DNA of 64,000 nt from Armatimonadota bacterium (GTDB taxonomy: Bacteria > Armatimonadota > HRBIN16): NCBI GenBank assembly GCA_040289885.1, contig PSLZ01000005.1, positions 26,598 through 90,597 of the forward strand. The letters run 5' to 3'. The notes beneath the pieces are model-generated. The model was not told the DNA's origin, did no database searches, and was given only the letters and a program-made list of their open reading frames with translations. Positions 30,058-60,315 of this stretch are shown one piece after another. How positions within the stretch are numbered: position 1 is the stretch's first letter; every line of letters begins with the position of its first letter. The translations under genes and the position numbers were made by a program.

Positions 30058-30091
30058 TGCGCGCACCGCAGGGGTTTGGTTGTCACTTACG
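30058..30091. terminator. strong GC palindrome terminator (13-bp stem)
   Basis: cccctgcggtgcg|cgcaccgcagggg followed by TTTGGTTG; between convergent genes. Confidence 0.7.
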
Positions 30092-30836
30092 AGCGCTTGC
30101 GGCGAAGCAGGAACACCGCCGGCATGCCCGACAGGAACAGCATCCACGTCGAGGCGTCGGGGACGTTGGCGACGTAGACCACCATGTCCTGATAGTCGCG
30201 GTCAGCCCACGGCTGTCCGGTCGTCGGATGCCGGAACGGCGTGTCCTCTGCCCCAATGTAGTAGGCTTTCAACCCTGGCACAAGTGGCGGTGCTTCGAAG
30301 AACGCGAAGTGCTGGTCACTTGTTTGTCCAGGAGCATTCAGGTGGGACTCCGTGTACCAGGTGCCGCGGGGGTTCTCCAAATAGAACCCGAAGTCGGTGC
30401 TGCCAAGCGTCACAAGTGGGTTGAATATGATACTAGCACCGGGACCAGCACTGCCGTCGAACAGCTGTAGCCTGGTACTAGGATCACCCTTCTTGTAGAC
30501 ACCGAATTTGTTCGAACTGGCAAGTCCTGCAAGCTCGATCTTGATCGCCGCCCAGTCCGAACCCGGCGAGGTGAAGTACACTTCAGGGTCTGCACTTCCA
30601 CCTTCGCCTACCCAGGTTCGGCCAGGGAAGTATGGAGGCGCTCCCTGTGGTCCGATCTCCTTGCCAATGTTACCGTGTCCGGGATCCGAGCTCGGGTTGT
30701 CCCAGTACTCCCCCGAGTTGTCGGCTACCCAGTCTTGCCAGCTATAGGCCGCTTGCCCCTGCAGGGTCAACGCCCAGGCGCCCTGCACCGCCAGCGCCAA
30801 ATCGACCACCAATGCGAGTAGCACGAACCGTTTCAT
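30087..30836 (-). CDS. secreted PEP-CTERM sorting-domain protein
   Basis: Signal peptide MKRFVLLALVVDLALAVQGAWA; C-terminus VPDASTWMLFLSGMPAVFLLRRKRS (PEP-like motif + TM + basic tail); RBS GAAGGAGGAG. Confidence 0.75.
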   Translation of the reverse strand: MKRFVLLALVVDLALAVQGAWALTLQGQAAYSWQDWVADNSGEYWDNPSSDPGHGNIGKEIGPQGAPPYFPGRTWVGEGGSADPEVYFTSPGSDWAAIKIELAGLASSNKFGVYKKGDPSTRLQLFDGSAGPGASIIFNPLVTLGSTDFGFYLENPRGTWYTESHLNAPGQTSDQHFAFFEAPPLVPGLKAYYIGAEDTPFRHPTTGQPWADRDYQDMVVYVANVPDASTWMLFLSGMPAVFLLRRKRS

Positions 30837-30895: not shown

Positions 30896-30966
30896 CCTAT
30901 ATATATGCAAGAATCGTACCAAAACGGGGGTTTTGGGGCTTTTCGGGCAAAAATTTTTTTGAATTC
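30896..30966 (-). promoter_or_regulatory. sigma-54 promoter module (minus strand): AAAAATTTTT tract ... AAAACCCCCGTTTTGGTACGATTCTTGCATATATATAGG (-24 TGGTAC, -12 TTGCA)
   Basis: TGGYAC-N5-TTGCA core at 30906-30921 (reverse complement), ~58 nt upstream of the PEP-CTERM gene; same ~70-bp module recurs at 34921 and 59741. Confidence 0.6.
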
Positions 30967-34747: not shown

Positions 34748-34920
34748 GGCTCACCGCCCTCCGGTTGAGTGTTTATCTCCTATTTATCATAGGGGAAAGC
34801 GATTCCTGCTGTCAAGCCGCCGTAGCTTTCCACCCTCAGATTGAATGAGACACCGACCAAGTTACTTCGCCAAACAATGTAGCCGTAGCGTCGAAACCCA
34901 TAATGCCCACAGGACGCCCA

Positions 34921-34995
34921 AAAAAATCTCACAATTTTTTGCGTCAAAAAGAGGAAAAACCCCGTTTTTGGTACGAATCTTGCAGTATATATACG
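34921..34995 (+). promoter_or_regulatory. sigma-54 promoter module (plus strand): CACAATTTTTT...AAAAACCCCGTTTTTGGTACGAATCTTGCAGTATATATAC
   Basis: -24 TGGTAC 34969-34974, -12 TTGCA 34980-34984; ~65 nt upstream of the PEP-CTERM/C-type lectin gene. Confidence 0.6.
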
Positions 34996-35048
34996 GCGGG
35001 AAGACACGACACGATGAATCCCTATATGGGATGAAAGGAGGTACGACT

Positions 35049-35615
35049 GTGTTGTTCAGCGTCTATCGTCGGATAGGGCTGATAGCTGGCTTGAGCCTGC
35101 TTTTCGTACATGCGGCGCACAGCTACACCCTGCTTAACTCGACCGTCTGGTCGGTCAATGGACACCTCTACCAGGTCTATGGCGGTTCCAGCACTTGGGA
35201 CGACGCCGCAGCCTTCGCCAGCACGGTGCAGGTGCCAGGATTCTACAATGGCTACCTGGCGACTGTGCATAGCGACGCGGAAAATACCGTCATCACCAAC
35301 CTGCTGACCCTGCCCGCCTGGTTGGGAGGCTACCAACCCCCAGGCGAGCTCAACCCGAATGCCAACTGGCGATGGGTGTCGGGCGAACCGTGGACCTACA
35401 CGAACTGGTACCCCGGCCAGCCGGACGACCATCTCGGTCCCGGTAGCGAGCCGTACCTGGTTATCTACACGAACGGAATGTGGCATGACTACCCGGGAGG
35501 TACTGCCACTCGCCCATCGTTCGTGGTAGAGCTGAACCCGGTTCCCGACCCAGCGAGTATTCTCGGACTAGGCATGGGTGTAGCAGGTCTGTTCCTGCGC
35601 CGCCGCAAACGCTAA
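35049..35615 (+). CDS. secreted C-type lectin-like domain protein with PEP-CTERM anchor
   Basis: RBS AAGGAGGT 6 nt before GTG 35049; signal peptide; WLGGY...NWRWVSGEPWTYTNWYPGQPDD...YLVIYTNGMWHD (CTLD-like); C-terminus PVPDPASILGLGMGVAGLFLRRRKR. Confidence 0.75.
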   Translation: MLFSVYRRIGLIAGLSLLFVHAAHSYTLLNSTVWSVNGHLYQVYGGSSTWDDAAAFASTVQVPGFYNGYLATVHSDAENTVITNLLTLPAWLGGYQPPGELNPNANWRWVSGEPWTYTNWYPGQPDDHLGPGSEPYLVIYTNGMWHDYPGGTATRPSFVVELNPVPDPASILGLGMGVAGLFLRRRKR

Positions 35616-42560: not shown

Positions 42561-43244
42561 TCAAAACGCTTGCAGGGGATTGAACTGGCTAGCGCTCCAC
42601 GGGCTCTGTACCGCCAGTCTGATCCACCGCACGTGACCATCTGCAAACACCACGTTATTGCCGTCGTTGTGGCGCGGACACTGCCACCGCGGACGCTCCC
42701 GATACGCCGATTCCCAGTTCGGGTGCCGCTCGGCAAGCTGACCGGGAAGCACATACATCATGTAACTGCCCATGGCGCCGTTCAGGTTGTTTGCATCCGC
42801 CCGGTTGTTGGGCGTGTCATACGCCAGAAACGAGTTCGACGGCACTGTAATCCTGTCCAATGCCATTCCGCTGGTTCCATAAGCCGTGCCCATCAGGCGC
42901 GGAAACCCCAAAAACGTGTTGTATGCATAACTGGGCACCGGCAATGTGTTCTCCGGGCATACCCAGATTCGCGCATCCTTCACGTACGGCTGTAACGCTA
43001 CCATCCATGCGCGCCCCTCAGGAGCAACCACCGCGTAGGGAAACGCCGCGGGCAGGTTGCCTTCCCAGTCCTGGGCGTAGAGCGCAAATGCCTGCCCAAT
43101 CTGGCGCAGGTTGCTAACGCATGCGCTACTGCGTGCCACCGCGCGGGCGCGCCCAAATACCGGCATCAAAACGGACGACAGGATCGCCACCACGGCGATG
43201 ACGACGAGCAGTTCAACCATCGTAAAGGCTTTTCGCGTTCTCAT
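42561..43244 (-). CDS. prepilin-type N-terminal cleavage/methylation domain protein, DUF1559 family (second copy)
   Basis: MRTRKAFTMVELLVVIAVVAILSSVLMPVF...NVVFADGHVRWI; ATG 43244 with GAGGAG 8 nt upstream. Confidence 0.8.
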   Translation of the reverse strand: MRTRKAFTMVELLVVIAVVAILSSVLMPVFGRARAVARSSACVSNLRQIGQAFALYAQDWEGNLPAAFPYAVVAPEGRAWMVALQPYVKDARIWVCPENTLPVPSYAYNTFLGFPRLMGTAYGTSGMALDRITVPSNSFLAYDTPNNRADANNLNGAMGSYMMYVLPGQLAERHPNWESAYRERPRWQCPRHNDGNNVVFADGHVRWIRLAVQSPWSASQFNPLQAF

Positions 43245-43450
43245 GACACTCACTCCTCATGTTCAAAATAGTCTTCGCTGTGCAGGGCACCGCTCCTTGT
43301 GGTAGCCTCTTTTTTGCCCAGCACCCTTATTACTAGCAAGAAGCGTGCCACAGCGGTGATAAAATTACCAGATTTTGCCCCAAACGGCGGGAAATTTCCA
43401 CCCGTTTCCCGAAAACATTACCAGCAAAAACGAACGCGGAGAGTGCCAAC

Positions 43451-48639: not shown

Positions 48640-48906
48640 CTACGCCGACTCTGCCTCCGCCTTCGCTATCTGAACCCAGCGCACCACCCGATGAGGGTCG
48701 TTCCGCTCGTTCCAGCCGTTTTCGGGGTCATAAAAGACGAGCGGGCGCGCCGGTTCCAGCGCGTTGTGGCGATACCACCGCTCGCACTTCTCCTGCTCTA
48801 TAGGGTGCGCAGACAGCTCGGCAACCTGCTTCGCCAGCTCGCGCAGGATACGCTGGTCGCCCCGACGGATGGAGAACCTTGTTCGGGTTGCAGTTTGCCC
48901 GGACAT
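48640..48906 (-). CDS. small hypothetical protein
   Basis: 88-aa segment MSGQTATRTRFSIRRGDQRILRELAKQVAEL... downstream of the PEP-CTERM gene; upstream part of the ORF-track entry 48640..49335 overlaps that gene and is discarded. Confidence 0.3.
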   Translation of the reverse strand: MSGQTATRTRFSIRRGDQRILRELAKQVAELSAHPIEQEKCERWYRHNALEPARPLVFYDPENGWNERNDPHRVVRWVQIAKAEAESA

Positions 48907-48974
48907 CGCGTACCTCCATGATGTTAGATGGGACAGGGCGGTTTCCTGCGCGTAGAGACTGTCCGCGCGCCAGA

Positions 48975-50057
48975 CTACCGTCTTCGTCGACGCAGCGCCA
49001 GCAATGCCACACCGCCTAGCAACACCAGCCCCGATGCAGGCTCCGGCACCGGCTGTGCCAGAATCACGCTCCAGTAGCGCACCCCGCCGATGTCTTCGCG
49101 GGTCACCCACACCAGCTCGCCCCGGTCGTTCAGCGCGACACGGAAACTGCGCGTGGTGCCGCTGTTGTCGGTCAGCGCAATCAACGTGCCATCGGCAAGC
49201 AGATGCACATCGTACTTCCGAAACAGAATCGCCTGCTCGTATGCTACCCAGCCTCGGTTGTTGATGTCGGGCGAGGAGCTGAGGGCGTTGCCGGTGTTGT
49301 TCGTCAGCGCAACCACCCCCGTCGCCTCCGACCACTGCTCGATGTTCCAGTTACTGCCGTTGTGGTGCATCCACACCACCTGCCCGTTGTCGTTGAGGTC
49401 GGGCGAGGCGTAGTCGTCGCCGACGGTGTTCTGGCTGAGGTTGCGGTAGTTGCGCATGTCATCCGCATGAGCGAGGTAGATCTGCGCATTCGCCCTGCTG
49501 TCCACCGCATTCCATGCTATCTCGCCTCGGTTATTGATGCGAGGGGTCTGGCTGTCGAAGCCCGCCCAGCTGGTCAGGTTCACCGGGTCGCTGTCGCCGG
49601 GCTTCCACAGGTAGATGTCCTGATAGCCTGTTGTCAGGTTCGTTCCCGTTGTCACCACCCAGCCCGAGTCGTTGATGTCCGGCGCACCAAAGCCTACCGA
49701 GCCGTCAGTATGCGTGATGTTGGTAATGATACCGCTATCCCACAATACCACATCCGATACGGAGCCGTCGTCGTAGCGCCAGACGATCTGATTGTGGTTG
49801 TTGATGCGGGGATAGGTGTTCAGGCGTCCCTGCTCGCCCGCACTGAGCCGTCGCACCTGCGAACCATCGTACAACCACACGTCCGAGCGCATAAAATCGC
49901 CCTCGCCCCACACGATCCAGCCGTTGTTGTTGATGTGCACCGACTGAACCGAGTTGGTATGGCGGTAGATGACCCGCGTGCGGAACACCGACTGGGAATG
50001 TGCCCGCAGGCTCGCCAGCAGTAACCCCGCGATCGCAATACCGTACAGGACACGCAT
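48975..50057 (-). CDS. secreted repeat (beta-propeller-like, ~7 x P-INN-G-IVW units) protein with PEP-CTERM anchor
   Basis: RBS AGGAGG 7 nt before ATG 50057; signal peptide MRVLYGIAIAGLLLASLRAHSQS; C-terminus PVPEPASGLVLLGGVALLALRRRRR; repeats INNNGWIVW / INNHNQIVW / INNRGEIAW / LNDNGQVVW. Confidence 0.8.
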   Translation of the reverse strand: MRVLYGIAIAGLLLASLRAHSQSVFRTRVIYRHTNSVQSVHINNNGWIVWGEGDFMRSDVWLYDGSQVRRLSAGEQGRLNTYPRINNHNQIVWRYDDGSVSDVVLWDSGIITNITHTDGSVGFGAPDINDSGWVVTTGTNLTTGYQDIYLWKPGDSDPVNLTSWAGFDSQTPRINNRGEIAWNAVDSRANAQIYLAHADDMRNYRNLSQNTVGDDYASPDLNDNGQVVWMHHNGSNWNIEQWSEATGVVALTNNTGNALSSSPDINNRGWVAYEQAILFRKYDVHLLADGTLIALTDNSGTTRSFRVALNDRGELVWVTREDIGGVRYWSVILAQPVPEPASGLVLLGGVALLALRRRRR

Positions 50058-50091
50058 TGTGCGACCTCCTTTCCAAATGATACCGTTGTAC

Positions 50092-51369
50092 TCACACCCA
50101 CTTGATGCCGATGTCGGTGCGATAGTGCATGTATTCGAATCGGATACACCGCACGGCGTCGTACGCTCTGCCTCGCGCCTGCGCCAGCGTATCGCCCAGT
50201 GCAGTGACGCCCAGCACGCGCCCGCCAGCAGTGACGATCTTGTCGCCTTCCTTGCGCGTGCCGGCATGAAAGACCACGCACTCCGGCACTTGCGCCGCCT
50301 CCTCCAGCCCTTCGATGGGGAAGCCGGTCTCATATTTGCCCGGGTAACCGCCGGAAGTGATCACCACACACACGGCATAGCGTGGCTTCCACTGCAGGAC
50401 GATCTCGTCCAGACGGCACTCTACCGCCGCCTGCATGATCTCCACCAGGTCGTTCTCCAGCAAGGGGAGCACTGCCTGTGTCTCCGGATCGCCAAACCGT
50501 ACGTTGAACTCAAGCGTCTTCAACCCATCCTGGGTCACCATCGTGCCTGCGTAAAGCACCCCCCGGAAGGGGATGCCCGCATCGCGGGTAGCACGGATGG
50601 CTGGGTGGATAATCTGCTCCATCGCCTGCTGGTGCAGTTCCGGCGTTAAGATGCGCAGGGGACAGATACTGCCCATACCGCCCGTGTTCGCCCCTCTGTC
50701 GTTGTCCAGCGCGCGCTTATAGTCCTGAACGGGTGGCATCGGCAGGACGGTCACGCCGTCAGTGAACGCCATTAGGGAGGCTTCCTCCCCGCTTAGTACC
50801 TCCTCCACGACGATGCGCGCCCCTGCCTCGCCCAGCACGCGCTCCTCCATCAGCGAGCGAATGACCTCCAACGCCTCATCCAGCTGGTGCACCACAAAGA
50901 CGCCTTTCCCTGCCGCCTCGCCGTCCGCCTTGATTACCAGCCCCTTTGCCCCCTCGCGGAAACGCTGGTGCACATACGCCGCCGCCGCATGCGGGTCACT
51001 GAAGGCAGAGAAATCGGCGGTCGGGATGCGATAGCGGCGCATCACTTCCTTCGCGTAAACCTTGCTTCCCTCCAGACGCGCAGGCTCCTTGCTCGGACCG
51101 AACACGGCCAGCCCGCGCCTTTCAAACACGTCTACCACTCCAGCAATCAGCGGCGATTCGGGACCGACCACCGTTAGGTCAACTCGGTTGCGTTCCGCGA
51201 AATTCGCCAGGCTCTCGATGTCGGTCGCCTTCAACGCCACGCACTCTGCCAGCTCGGCGATGCCGGCGTTGCCCGGCGCCGCGTAGATTTTACTCACCTT
51301 TGGGCTCTGCGCGATCTTCCAGACAAGAGCATGTTCGCGCCCGCCCCCACCGATCACCAGTACTCTCAC
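50092..51369 (-). CDS. purD: phosphoribosylamine--glycine ligase
   Basis: MRVLVIGGGGREHALVWK; ATP-grasp; full length 425 aa. Confidence 0.95.
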   Translation of the reverse strand: MRVLVIGGGGREHALVWKIAQSPKVSKIYAAPGNAGIAELAECVALKATDIESLANFAERNRVDLTVVGPESPLIAGVVDVFERRGLAVFGPSKEPARLEGSKVYAKEVMRRYRIPTADFSAFSDPHAAAAYVHQRFREGAKGLVIKADGEAAGKGVFVVHQLDEALEVIRSLMEERVLGEAGARIVVEEVLSGEEASLMAFTDGVTVLPMPPVQDYKRALDNDRGANTGGMGSICPLRILTPELHQQAMEQIIHPAIRATRDAGIPFRGVLYAGTMVTQDGLKTLEFNVRFGDPETQAVLPLLENDLVEIMQAAVECRLDEIVLQWKPRYAVCVVITSGGYPGKYETGFPIEGLEEAAQVPECVVFHAGTRKEGDKIVTAGGRVLGVTALGDTLAQARGRAYDAVRCIRFEYMHYRTDIGIKWV

Positions 51370-59740: not shown

Positions 59741-59812
59741 CAAATTTGCACCAATTTTTCCTCTCGGAGGCGCAAAATCCCCGTTTTTGGCACGATTCTT
59801 GTGTATAGGAGA
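59741..59812 (+). promoter_or_regulatory. sigma-54 promoter module (plus strand): ...CACCAATTTTTCC...AAAATCCCCGTTTTTGGCACGATTCTTGTGTATAGG
   Basis: -24 TGGCAC 59788-59793, -12 TTGTG 59799-59803; ~60 nt upstream of a secreted-protein gene; third copy of the module. Confidence 0.55.
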
Positions 59813-59862: not shown

Positions 59863-60315
59863 ATGAACAAACATCTCGCTTTGTGGAGCCTGGCTGTGGC
59901 TGTTCTGCTCATGGCAGTGCCCGCGCTCGCACAGACATGGGTGCCTGTGGGAACAGCCGAAGGCGGTATCGCGGTGTATTTTAACGACACCAACGAGGTA
60001 CCCACGAACGTTTCGTACATCCGGGTGCAGTACGCCAACTCCACCACCAACGTGAACGGGGCTTCTATCAGCATGTTGGAACCGTTTAAGACCATCTTTG
60101 GTGACTTGGGGCAGTACGGGTTTGACGGTATCGCCCTTGCGCCCACGAACACGAACCCGCACGCTCTTCAGCGTGGGGCTGTTGCCGATTGGAACGTGGC
60201 TTCGTCGTCGGAAGGCGTAATAAAGAAAAGACGCGATAGCGGTATGGCTCACAGCCCGGCACATAGCCTGCCGGGCTGTGTGGTATACAGCCTCTGGCAG
60301 GATATGTTATCATAA
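59863..60315 (+). CDS. secreted hypothetical protein (sigma-54 module upstream; no PEP-CTERM tail as read)
   Basis: RBS GGAGG 8 nt before ATG 59863; signal peptide [25 protein letters not shown]; a perfect hairpin cagcccggca-N7-tgccgggctg lies inside the last 60 nt of the ORF. Confidence 0.6.

Follow-up and report, generated by a model that had tools for sequence, protein, structure and literature searches.

A predicted seven-bladed beta-propeller protein with a PEP-CTERM tail encoded directly behind purD in an Armatimonadota bacterium

We analyzed a 64,000-nucleotide stretch of an Armatimonadota genome (contig PSLZ01000005.1 of assembly GCA_040289885.1), called the window here at its full length, and focused on a gene at 48975..50057 on its minus strand that encodes a 360-amino-acid protein with a PEP-CTERM tail. 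The coding sequence runs from an ATG at 50057-50055 to a stop codon at 48977-48975; there is no frameshift, and the C-terminal tail is in the same frame as the repeats that make up most of the protein. A Shine-Dalgarno sequence (AAAGGAGG, 50065..50072, minus strand) can be read 7 nucleotides before the ATG, inside a 34-nucleotide spacer (50058..50091, minus strand) that begins after the stop of purD at 50092. The purD gene (50092..51369, minus strand) encodes phosphoribosylamine-glycine ligase, an identity confirmed by matches to GARS_N, GARS_A and GARS_C, and is the likely source of transcription. A longer frame returned by the open reading frame (ORF) finder, 48975..50333, was rejected as it overlaps purD, and both the orthologues and the Shine-Dalgarno sequence back the ATG at 50057. 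The GC content at third codon positions is 0.81, in line with the neighbouring genes. We conclude that 48975..50057 is a genuine and conserved gene whose product is a predicted seven-bladed beta-propeller, probably secreted, with a PEP-CTERM tail, and refer to it as the propeller gene.

Ten orthologues with 72-97% identity were found in metagenomes and metagenome-assembled genomes (MAGs), one of which is named 'PEP-CTERM sorting domain-containing protein [Armatimonadota bacterium]' by NCBI. A scan of GTDB species genomes placed an orthologue in about nine species, all uncultured, under labels that include Chthonomonadia bacterium Ch118, Armatimonadota bacteria KM4338-44 and RSWS16, SKYG83, SKYG40 and Bacterium HR16, and the carrier lineage is Chthonomonadia-like Armatimonadota. 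Against the ten orthologues, the ratio of nonsynonymous to synonymous substitution rates (dN/dS) was 0.08-0.19, and the propeller gene is therefore under clear purifying selection, although two to three times looser than that on purD (0.03-0.07).

The protein is built of seven tandem repeats of 43-47 amino acids with the unit P-x-[IL]-N-x-x-G-x-[IV]-[VA]-[WY], and seven matches to [IL]N[ND]x[GN]x[IVL][VA][WYT] start at residues 42, 85, 128, 174, 221, 265 and 309. All seven are encoded on the minus strand. Repeat 1 covers residues 36-78 (HINNNGWIVW, 49824..49952), repeat 2 residues 79-121 (RINNHNQIVW, 49695..49823) and repeat 3 residues 122-167 (DINDSGWVVT, 49557..49694); these are followed by repeat 4 at residues 168-214 (RINNRGEIAW, 49416..49556), repeat 5 at residues 215-258 (DLNDNGQVVW, 49284..49415) and repeat 6 at residues 259-302 (DINNRGWVAY, 49152..49283), and the series ends with a short repeat 7 at residues 303-334 (ALNDRGELVW, 49056..49151). 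Pairwise local alignment of the seven units gave a mean z of 4.1 relative to shuffles. In a leave-one-out test, where a profile made from six units scores the seventh and 300 shuffles serve as the control, repeats 1 to 7 scored 28.5, 21.8, 15.2, 24.1, 22.7, 24.6 and 11.0 bits, respectively, each above its own best shuffle (5.2-10.3 bits). An earlier note on this DNA, made from the sequence alone, had described regular repeats of about 40 amino acids, and exactly the strings it listed are present at a spacing of 43-47 residues, now with profile support. Tandem Repeats Finder detected no DNA-level tandem repeats in the gene, and the repeats are therefore ancient rather than a recent duplication.

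Structure prediction with AlphaFold2, based on an alignment of 16 sequences, returned a closed seven-bladed beta-propeller with a mean predicted local distance difference test score (pLDDT) of 88.2 and a predicted template modelling score of 0.84. Confidence was low only at an N-terminal helix (residues 2-20) and a C-terminal helix (residues 341-359). DSSP run on the model assigned four strands to each repeat except the last, which has three, and an extra N-terminal strand at residues 25-33 (49959..49985, minus strand). Since blade 7 has only three C-terminal strands, this N-terminal strand would provide the fourth and complete the blade as a 'velcro' closure. Seven four-stranded antiparallel sheets are thus arranged about a central axis in the model, as is required of a seven-bladed beta-propeller, and we predict with high confidence that the protein folds in this manner. 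Where the earlier note had proposed a propeller or a solenoid, the model (pLDDT 88) supports the former and excludes the latter, and a solenoid fold was rejected.

The top Foldseek matches of the model were the propellers of TolB and of S9 prolyl-oligopeptidases/acylaminoacyl-peptidases, with E-values of 3.5e-10 and weaker, and the nearest solved folds are the TolB, S9-peptidase, integrin-alpha and CylK propellers. Blades of the PD40 type have a signature consisting of a strand, a tight D/N-x-x-G turn and a second strand. The TolB and S9-peptidase propellers, which we take to be PD40-type, share this layout with the P-x-I-N-x-x-G-x-V-V-W element seen here. The likeness is at the level of fold only: there is no sequence-level match between those propellers and our protein, and they lack a PEP-CTERM tail. 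TolB has six blades and an N-terminal domain as opposed to seven blades and no N-terminal domain, and the protein does not match the TolB model TIGR02800 (cut-off 343 bits), while S9 peptidases are set apart by their catalytic domain. When the family profile was run against every PDB chain, no sequence matched at E<=1. We also considered Ca2+-binding DxNxNG loops of the type found in integrin and CylK blades; only two of the seven blades fit (DINDSG and DLNDNG) and the superfamily consensus reads PQINxxG, so this candidate was rejected.

The repeats had been assigned to an unnamed class, and this does not hold: the unit is an NxxGxxAF / HAF / DUF7453 type of PD40(TolB)-like blade and belongs to a named, very large superfamily. 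Read in register, the motif N-x-x-G-x-x-[V/A]-[W/Y] corresponds to the NxxGxxAF of NCBIfam TIGR05002 ('choice-of-anchor tandem repeat') with conservative substitutions, and the protein has the tandem arrangement of that family, with seven units of NxxGxx[VA][WYT], two of which read NxxGxxAW or NxxGxxAY. The TIGR05002 model itself matches a single stretch in repeat 5 (residues 217-228) with 24.0 bits (E 2.7e-5; cut-off 50), and the HAF repeat model TIGR02913 reaches 14.3 bits (cut-off 22.65). DUF7453 (PF24251, cut-off 26.2 bits) gave no match to the protein at E<=10 and 15.5 bits, also below the cut-off, for orthologue P0005; a Pfam scan of the protein found nothing besides the tail.

The connection to these families is made by more distant relatives. 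A homologue found with phmmer (P0014; E 7e-9, 26% identity), also a PEP-CTERM protein, passes DUF7453 at 34.3 bits, P0021 passes TIGR05002 at 51.3 bits and P0075 passes HAF_rpt at 27.2 bits. Using hhalign, the orthologue profile aligned to P0021 with 98.3% probability (E 2.2e-14) and to P0075 with 98.5% probability, the alignments spanning four to five consecutive blades. DUF7453 and the HAF repeat therefore fall in the same repeat superfamily as our protein, through P0014 and P0075. Most of the nearest relatives are sub-threshold as well: among ten checked individually, one passes TIGR05002 (P0021), one HAF_rpt (P0075) and one DUF7453. The resemblance to TIGR05002 extends to tandem units of about 44 amino acids with N-x-x-G-x-x-[AV]-[FWY], occurrence in secreted proteins and interchangeable C-terminal sorting signals, while our protein differs in having W or Y for F and often V for A.

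To estimate the size of the group, a profile made from the orthologues and five distant hits was searched against 1.84 billion cluster representatives, which returned 22,438 proteins with E<=0.001; lowering the limit to 1e-10 left 5,086 of them, and to 1e-30 left 602. For 43 of these relatives the consensus is a regular unit, PQINxxGxVVWxGxDGxDxEIFLYDGxxxxQLTxN. In 44 sequences scanned at E<=0.001, TIGR05002 was found in 33, beta_prop_Msarc in 23 and the TolB propeller model in 11. The C-terminal anchors and fusion partners of the relatives include PEP-CTERM, the MYXO-CTERM family, CFI-box-CTERM, dockerin, cohesin, PKD, fn3 and Ig-like domains, a variety that fits the 'choice-of-anchor' pattern expected of surface-displayed domains. 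On the basis of these sequence comparisons, the protein is a divergent member of a named, very large and functionally unstudied superfamily, and is placed in a W-type sub-class that curated thresholds largely miss. Within the literature library searched, no paper used NxxGxxAF, DUF7453 or HAF repeat, and there were only unrelated mentions of 'choice-of-anchor', and we know of no function for either DUF7453 or the HAF repeat. In the wider superfamily (P0016-P0162), the PxINxxGxVVW...EIFLYDG repeat occurs in thousands of clusters at 50% identity, including giants of up to 3,660 amino acids with 11 matched stretches.

Both ends of the protein carry features of an exported, sorted protein. The first 21 residues (MRVLYGIAIAGLLLASLRAHS, 49995..50057, minus strand) form a putative signal peptide by inspection, with a probable cut at AHS|QS, and coincide with the low-confidence helix at residues 2-20 of the model; MRVLYGIAIAGLLLASLRAHS|QS looks like a Sec signal. 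In the ten orthologues, positions 14-16 of the signal peptide read L-A-C, a permissive lipobox-like pattern, whereas residue 16 of our protein (about 50010-50012, minus strand) is a serine (AGC), giving L-A-S. Either the cysteine is not a lipidation site or N-terminal processing has changed in this protein. At the other end, residues 336-360 (48978..49052, minus strand) form the PEP-CTERM sorting domain, with PVPEPAS, a hydrophobic helix and RRRRR. This extreme C-terminus, VPEPAS-GLVLLGGVALLAL-RRRRR, has the expected order of PEP motif, hydrophobic helix and basic cluster, and the helix appears in the model at residues 341-359. With 19.3 bits the tail exceeds the cut-off of TIGR02595 (PEP-CTERM), which is 16, and the PF07589 score of orthologue P0005 is 25.9. 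The tail is conserved in 10/10 orthologues, and V337, P338, E339 and P340 are invariant in all 11 sequences. The tail is therefore genuine, as had been proposed.

The setting also fits a PEP-CTERM/exosortase (EpsH) system. In the model of Haft et al. (2006, PMC1569441), proteins with signal peptides and PEP-CTERM domains are sorted by EpsH. Here we find a putative signal peptide, a PEP motif, a transmembrane helix and a basic cluster, together with two more PEP-CTERM(-like) genes in the window, so several such proteins are encoded, and the host is a diderm, since the mlaD and mlaE genes in the window indicate an outer membrane. In a close relative (MAG SKYG83 / GCA_033578435.1, loci L004 and L012), an exosortase and EpsI lie with exopolysaccharide (EPS) genes about 1.7-3.2 kb downstream of the orthologue. 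This EpsI passes TIGR02914 (67.8 against a cut-off of 42.8), and the exosortase exceeds the TIGR02602 cut-off (150.8, with 105.55 required) and also passes the TIGR04178 signature, but differs from the described subtypes, as no named subtype reaches its cut-off. The lineage thus has cognate sorting machinery, and by analogy with the described system we consider exosortase-dependent surface display of the propeller quite probable.

The only mildly unusual thing about the propeller gene is its position behind purD. Wherever enough sequence of an orthologous locus is available, a single strand carries mlaE, an ABC ATPase gene, mlaD, rplI, dnaB, purD and the propeller gene in this order. The placement 34 nucleotides downstream of purD on the same strand stands as first described. 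The spacer is 34-44 nucleotides long across loci, and in an alignment of six loci the Shine-Dalgarno sequence is the sole conserved element. No promoter-like or terminator-like site was found in the spacer, although the scan used the sigma-70 consensus and promoters of Armatimonadota are uncharacterised and may be missed. The fold of the spacer was not unusual (z-score -0.79), there were no Rfam elements, such as a riboswitch or leader, in or around it, and no terminator was found after the propeller gene (z -0.09). Read-through from purD, suggested in the earlier note, is plausible given a spacer free of terminator-like or promoter-like sites and an adjacency kept in every orthologous locus, and on balance we think that the propeller gene is co-transcribed with purD.

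The alternative is that a promoter within the 3′ end of purD serves the propeller gene alone, and that the adjacency is a historical accident. In its favour, a sigma-70 consensus scan could miss a promoter in a phylum where these are uncharacterised, and the downstream side of the gene differs between lineages and is a rearrangement hotspot, so that the gene behaves as the end of a block. However, the short spacer with only its Shine-Dalgarno sequence conserved, the free variation of third-codon positions in the last 150 nucleotides of purD, the lack of a terminator-like structure after purD and the survival of the adjacency up to a synonymous divergence (dS) of about 1-1.6 all argue against this, and we regard a separate promoter as unlikely. 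As for the downstream side itself, most loci have a 420-amino-acid protein followed by GHL10, a xylose-isomerase-like TIM barrel and a BNR_2 protein, and locus L006 has YjbQ. L004 and L012 have a 538-amino-acid membrane protein and then, on the opposite strand, EpsI, exosortase, GtrA, UbiA, a sugar transferase (Bac_transf) and a Wzz-type kinase. This EPS/exosortase locus (8827-12538 in L004, 10761-12292 in L012) is replaced by carbohydrate-related genes in the lineage of the window.

The two other PEP-CTERM(-like) genes in the window are arranged differently. One, at 30087..30836 on the minus strand, has a VPDAS...RRKRS tail, and the other, at about 35031..35615 on the plus strand, combines a C-type lectin domain with PEP-CTERM. 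Both have a common upstream module of about 90 conserved nucleotides ending in TTGGTACGAwTCTTGCA, a -24/-12 element of the sigma-54 type followed by TATATA; its two exact copies (30906-30922, minus strand, and 34968-34984, plus strand) compare with 0.1 expected by chance. The contrast drawn earlier is real, as this module is absent from the propeller gene. A strict sigma-54 consensus (TGGCACGTTGATTGC) does occur at 49191 on the minus strand, but it lies inside the coding sequence of blade 6, upstream of no start, and was treated as chance. Haft et al. (2006, PMC1569441) reported that the majority of PEP-CTERM genes form single-gene units preceded by long intergenic regions, in which a sigma-54 motif is found in Proteobacteria. 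The propeller gene departs from this in lying 34 nucleotides behind purD without a sigma-54 module, and the departure is conserved in about 10 species.

Taken together, we favour a Sec-exported, exosortase-sorted seven-bladed binding propeller that is transcribed by read-through from purD, and give this reading as a whole a probability of about 65%. The protein would be exported by the Sec system through its putative signal peptide, and its seven NxxGxx[AV][WY] repeats are predicted to form one closed propeller of PD40/TolB-like blades. The PEP-CTERM helix would hold it transiently in the inner membrane until the lineage's exosortase (EpsH family, with EpsI) recognises and cleaves the PEP-CTERM domain, as family knowledge and the relative's locus suggest, and the propeller would then be passed to the outer envelope or exopolysaccharide layer. 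Outside the cell it may act as a non-catalytic binding module, either lectin/adhesin-like or as a protein-protein scaffold. We propose a purely binding role tentatively, because the relatives combine the 'choice-of-anchor' pattern with adhesin-type fusion partners, and there are no matches to catalytic families. Transcription by read-through from purD, at the end of the conserved mlaEFD-rplI-dnaB-purD block, would make production constitutive.

Several points weigh against this reading. The fold was predicted from an alignment that is shallow, with 16 sequences, and the protein falls below the TIGR05002 and HAF cut-offs and has no DUF7453 match. PF07589 is narrowly missed by the tail (18.3 against 20.7 bits), and tblastn found no exosortase or EpsI in the 64-kb window. 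A promoter may lie inside the purD coding region, and the promoter rules of Armatimonadota are not characterised. We identified neither a ligand nor a binding site nor catalytic residues for the protein, and found no tested function for any member of the superfamily.

Two further alternatives concern what the protein does. It could be a propeller-fold enzyme (such as a polysaccharide lyase, a glycosidase or an alkylating enzyme) that targets glycans outside the cell in concert with the downstream GHL10 and BNR-sialidase-like genes, which we consider very unlikely. The least probable option is a periplasmic TolB-like envelope-maintenance protein that is tethered in the inner membrane by its C-terminal helix, a plain anchor, and works with the Mla lipid-transport genes: the best Foldseek matches to TolB, the TolB propeller model in 11/44 relatives, the conserved mlaE-mlaF-mlaD-rplI-dnaB-purD-gene block and expression that appears housekeeping-type without a sigma-54 module all speak for it, but TolB's six blades and N-terminal domain and its hidden Markov model are not matched here, the tail passes the PEP-CTERM model with VPEP invariant across orthologues, an exosortase/EpsI pair adjoins the orthologue in one relative, and three unrelated housekeeping genes stand between the propeller gene and mla.

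For annotation, the favoured reading of an exosortase-sorted binding propeller would replace 'hypothetical / PEP-CTERM' with a seven-bladed propeller of the NxxGxxAF/HAF/DUF7453 type that is displayed by way of the exosortase pathway. A propeller protein of this kind is unsurprising to a specialist and overturns nothing; the points to carry forward are that its gene is attached to a housekeeping operon in a conserved manner and that its repeats are poorly covered, as the curated models of the superfamily miss most of a large sub-class. Since members of the family have no known function, a single biochemical result on a ligand or on localisation would apply to thousands of proteins. The position behind purD is also a simple natural case for asking if some exosortase substrates are constitutive envelope components. 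The stronger proposal, that an exosortase substrate has become fixed to the end of the mlaEFD-rplI-dnaB-purD block as a constitutive structural or binding component of the envelope, and that the PxINxxGxVVW...EIFLYDG sub-class may merit its own family definition because the curated models mostly miss it, is speculative and in our view distinctly improbable. If true, it would contrast with the usual view of PEP-CTERM proteins as conditionally expressed, sigma-54-controlled matrix proteins.

Some smaller observations were made in the window. Downstream of the propeller gene, a 91-amino-acid ORF at 48640..48915 (minus strand) retains only the first ~71 and the last ~21 residues of the conserved 420-amino-acid protein, which belongs to no Pfam or NCBIfam family. 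All relatives have this protein in its full form between the propeller gene and GHL10, whereas the window lacks about 330 of its codons, in frame, through either a genuine internal deletion or an assembly collapse. The annotated long ORF at 34845..35615, which contains the C-type lectin and PEP-CTERM domains, probably starts at an internal MKGG... (about 35031). A third near-match to the -24/-12 element (TTGGCACGATTCTTGTG, 3 mismatches) lies at 59787-59803 on the plus strand, upstream of ORFs starting at 60278 and 60906. Lastly, a consensus sigma-54 element (TGGCACGCTTCTTGC) at 43336-43350 on the minus strand stands about 95 nucleotides upstream of a gene at 42561..43253 on the same strand, whose product is type IV pilin-like with N_methyl and DUF1559/SBP_bac_10.

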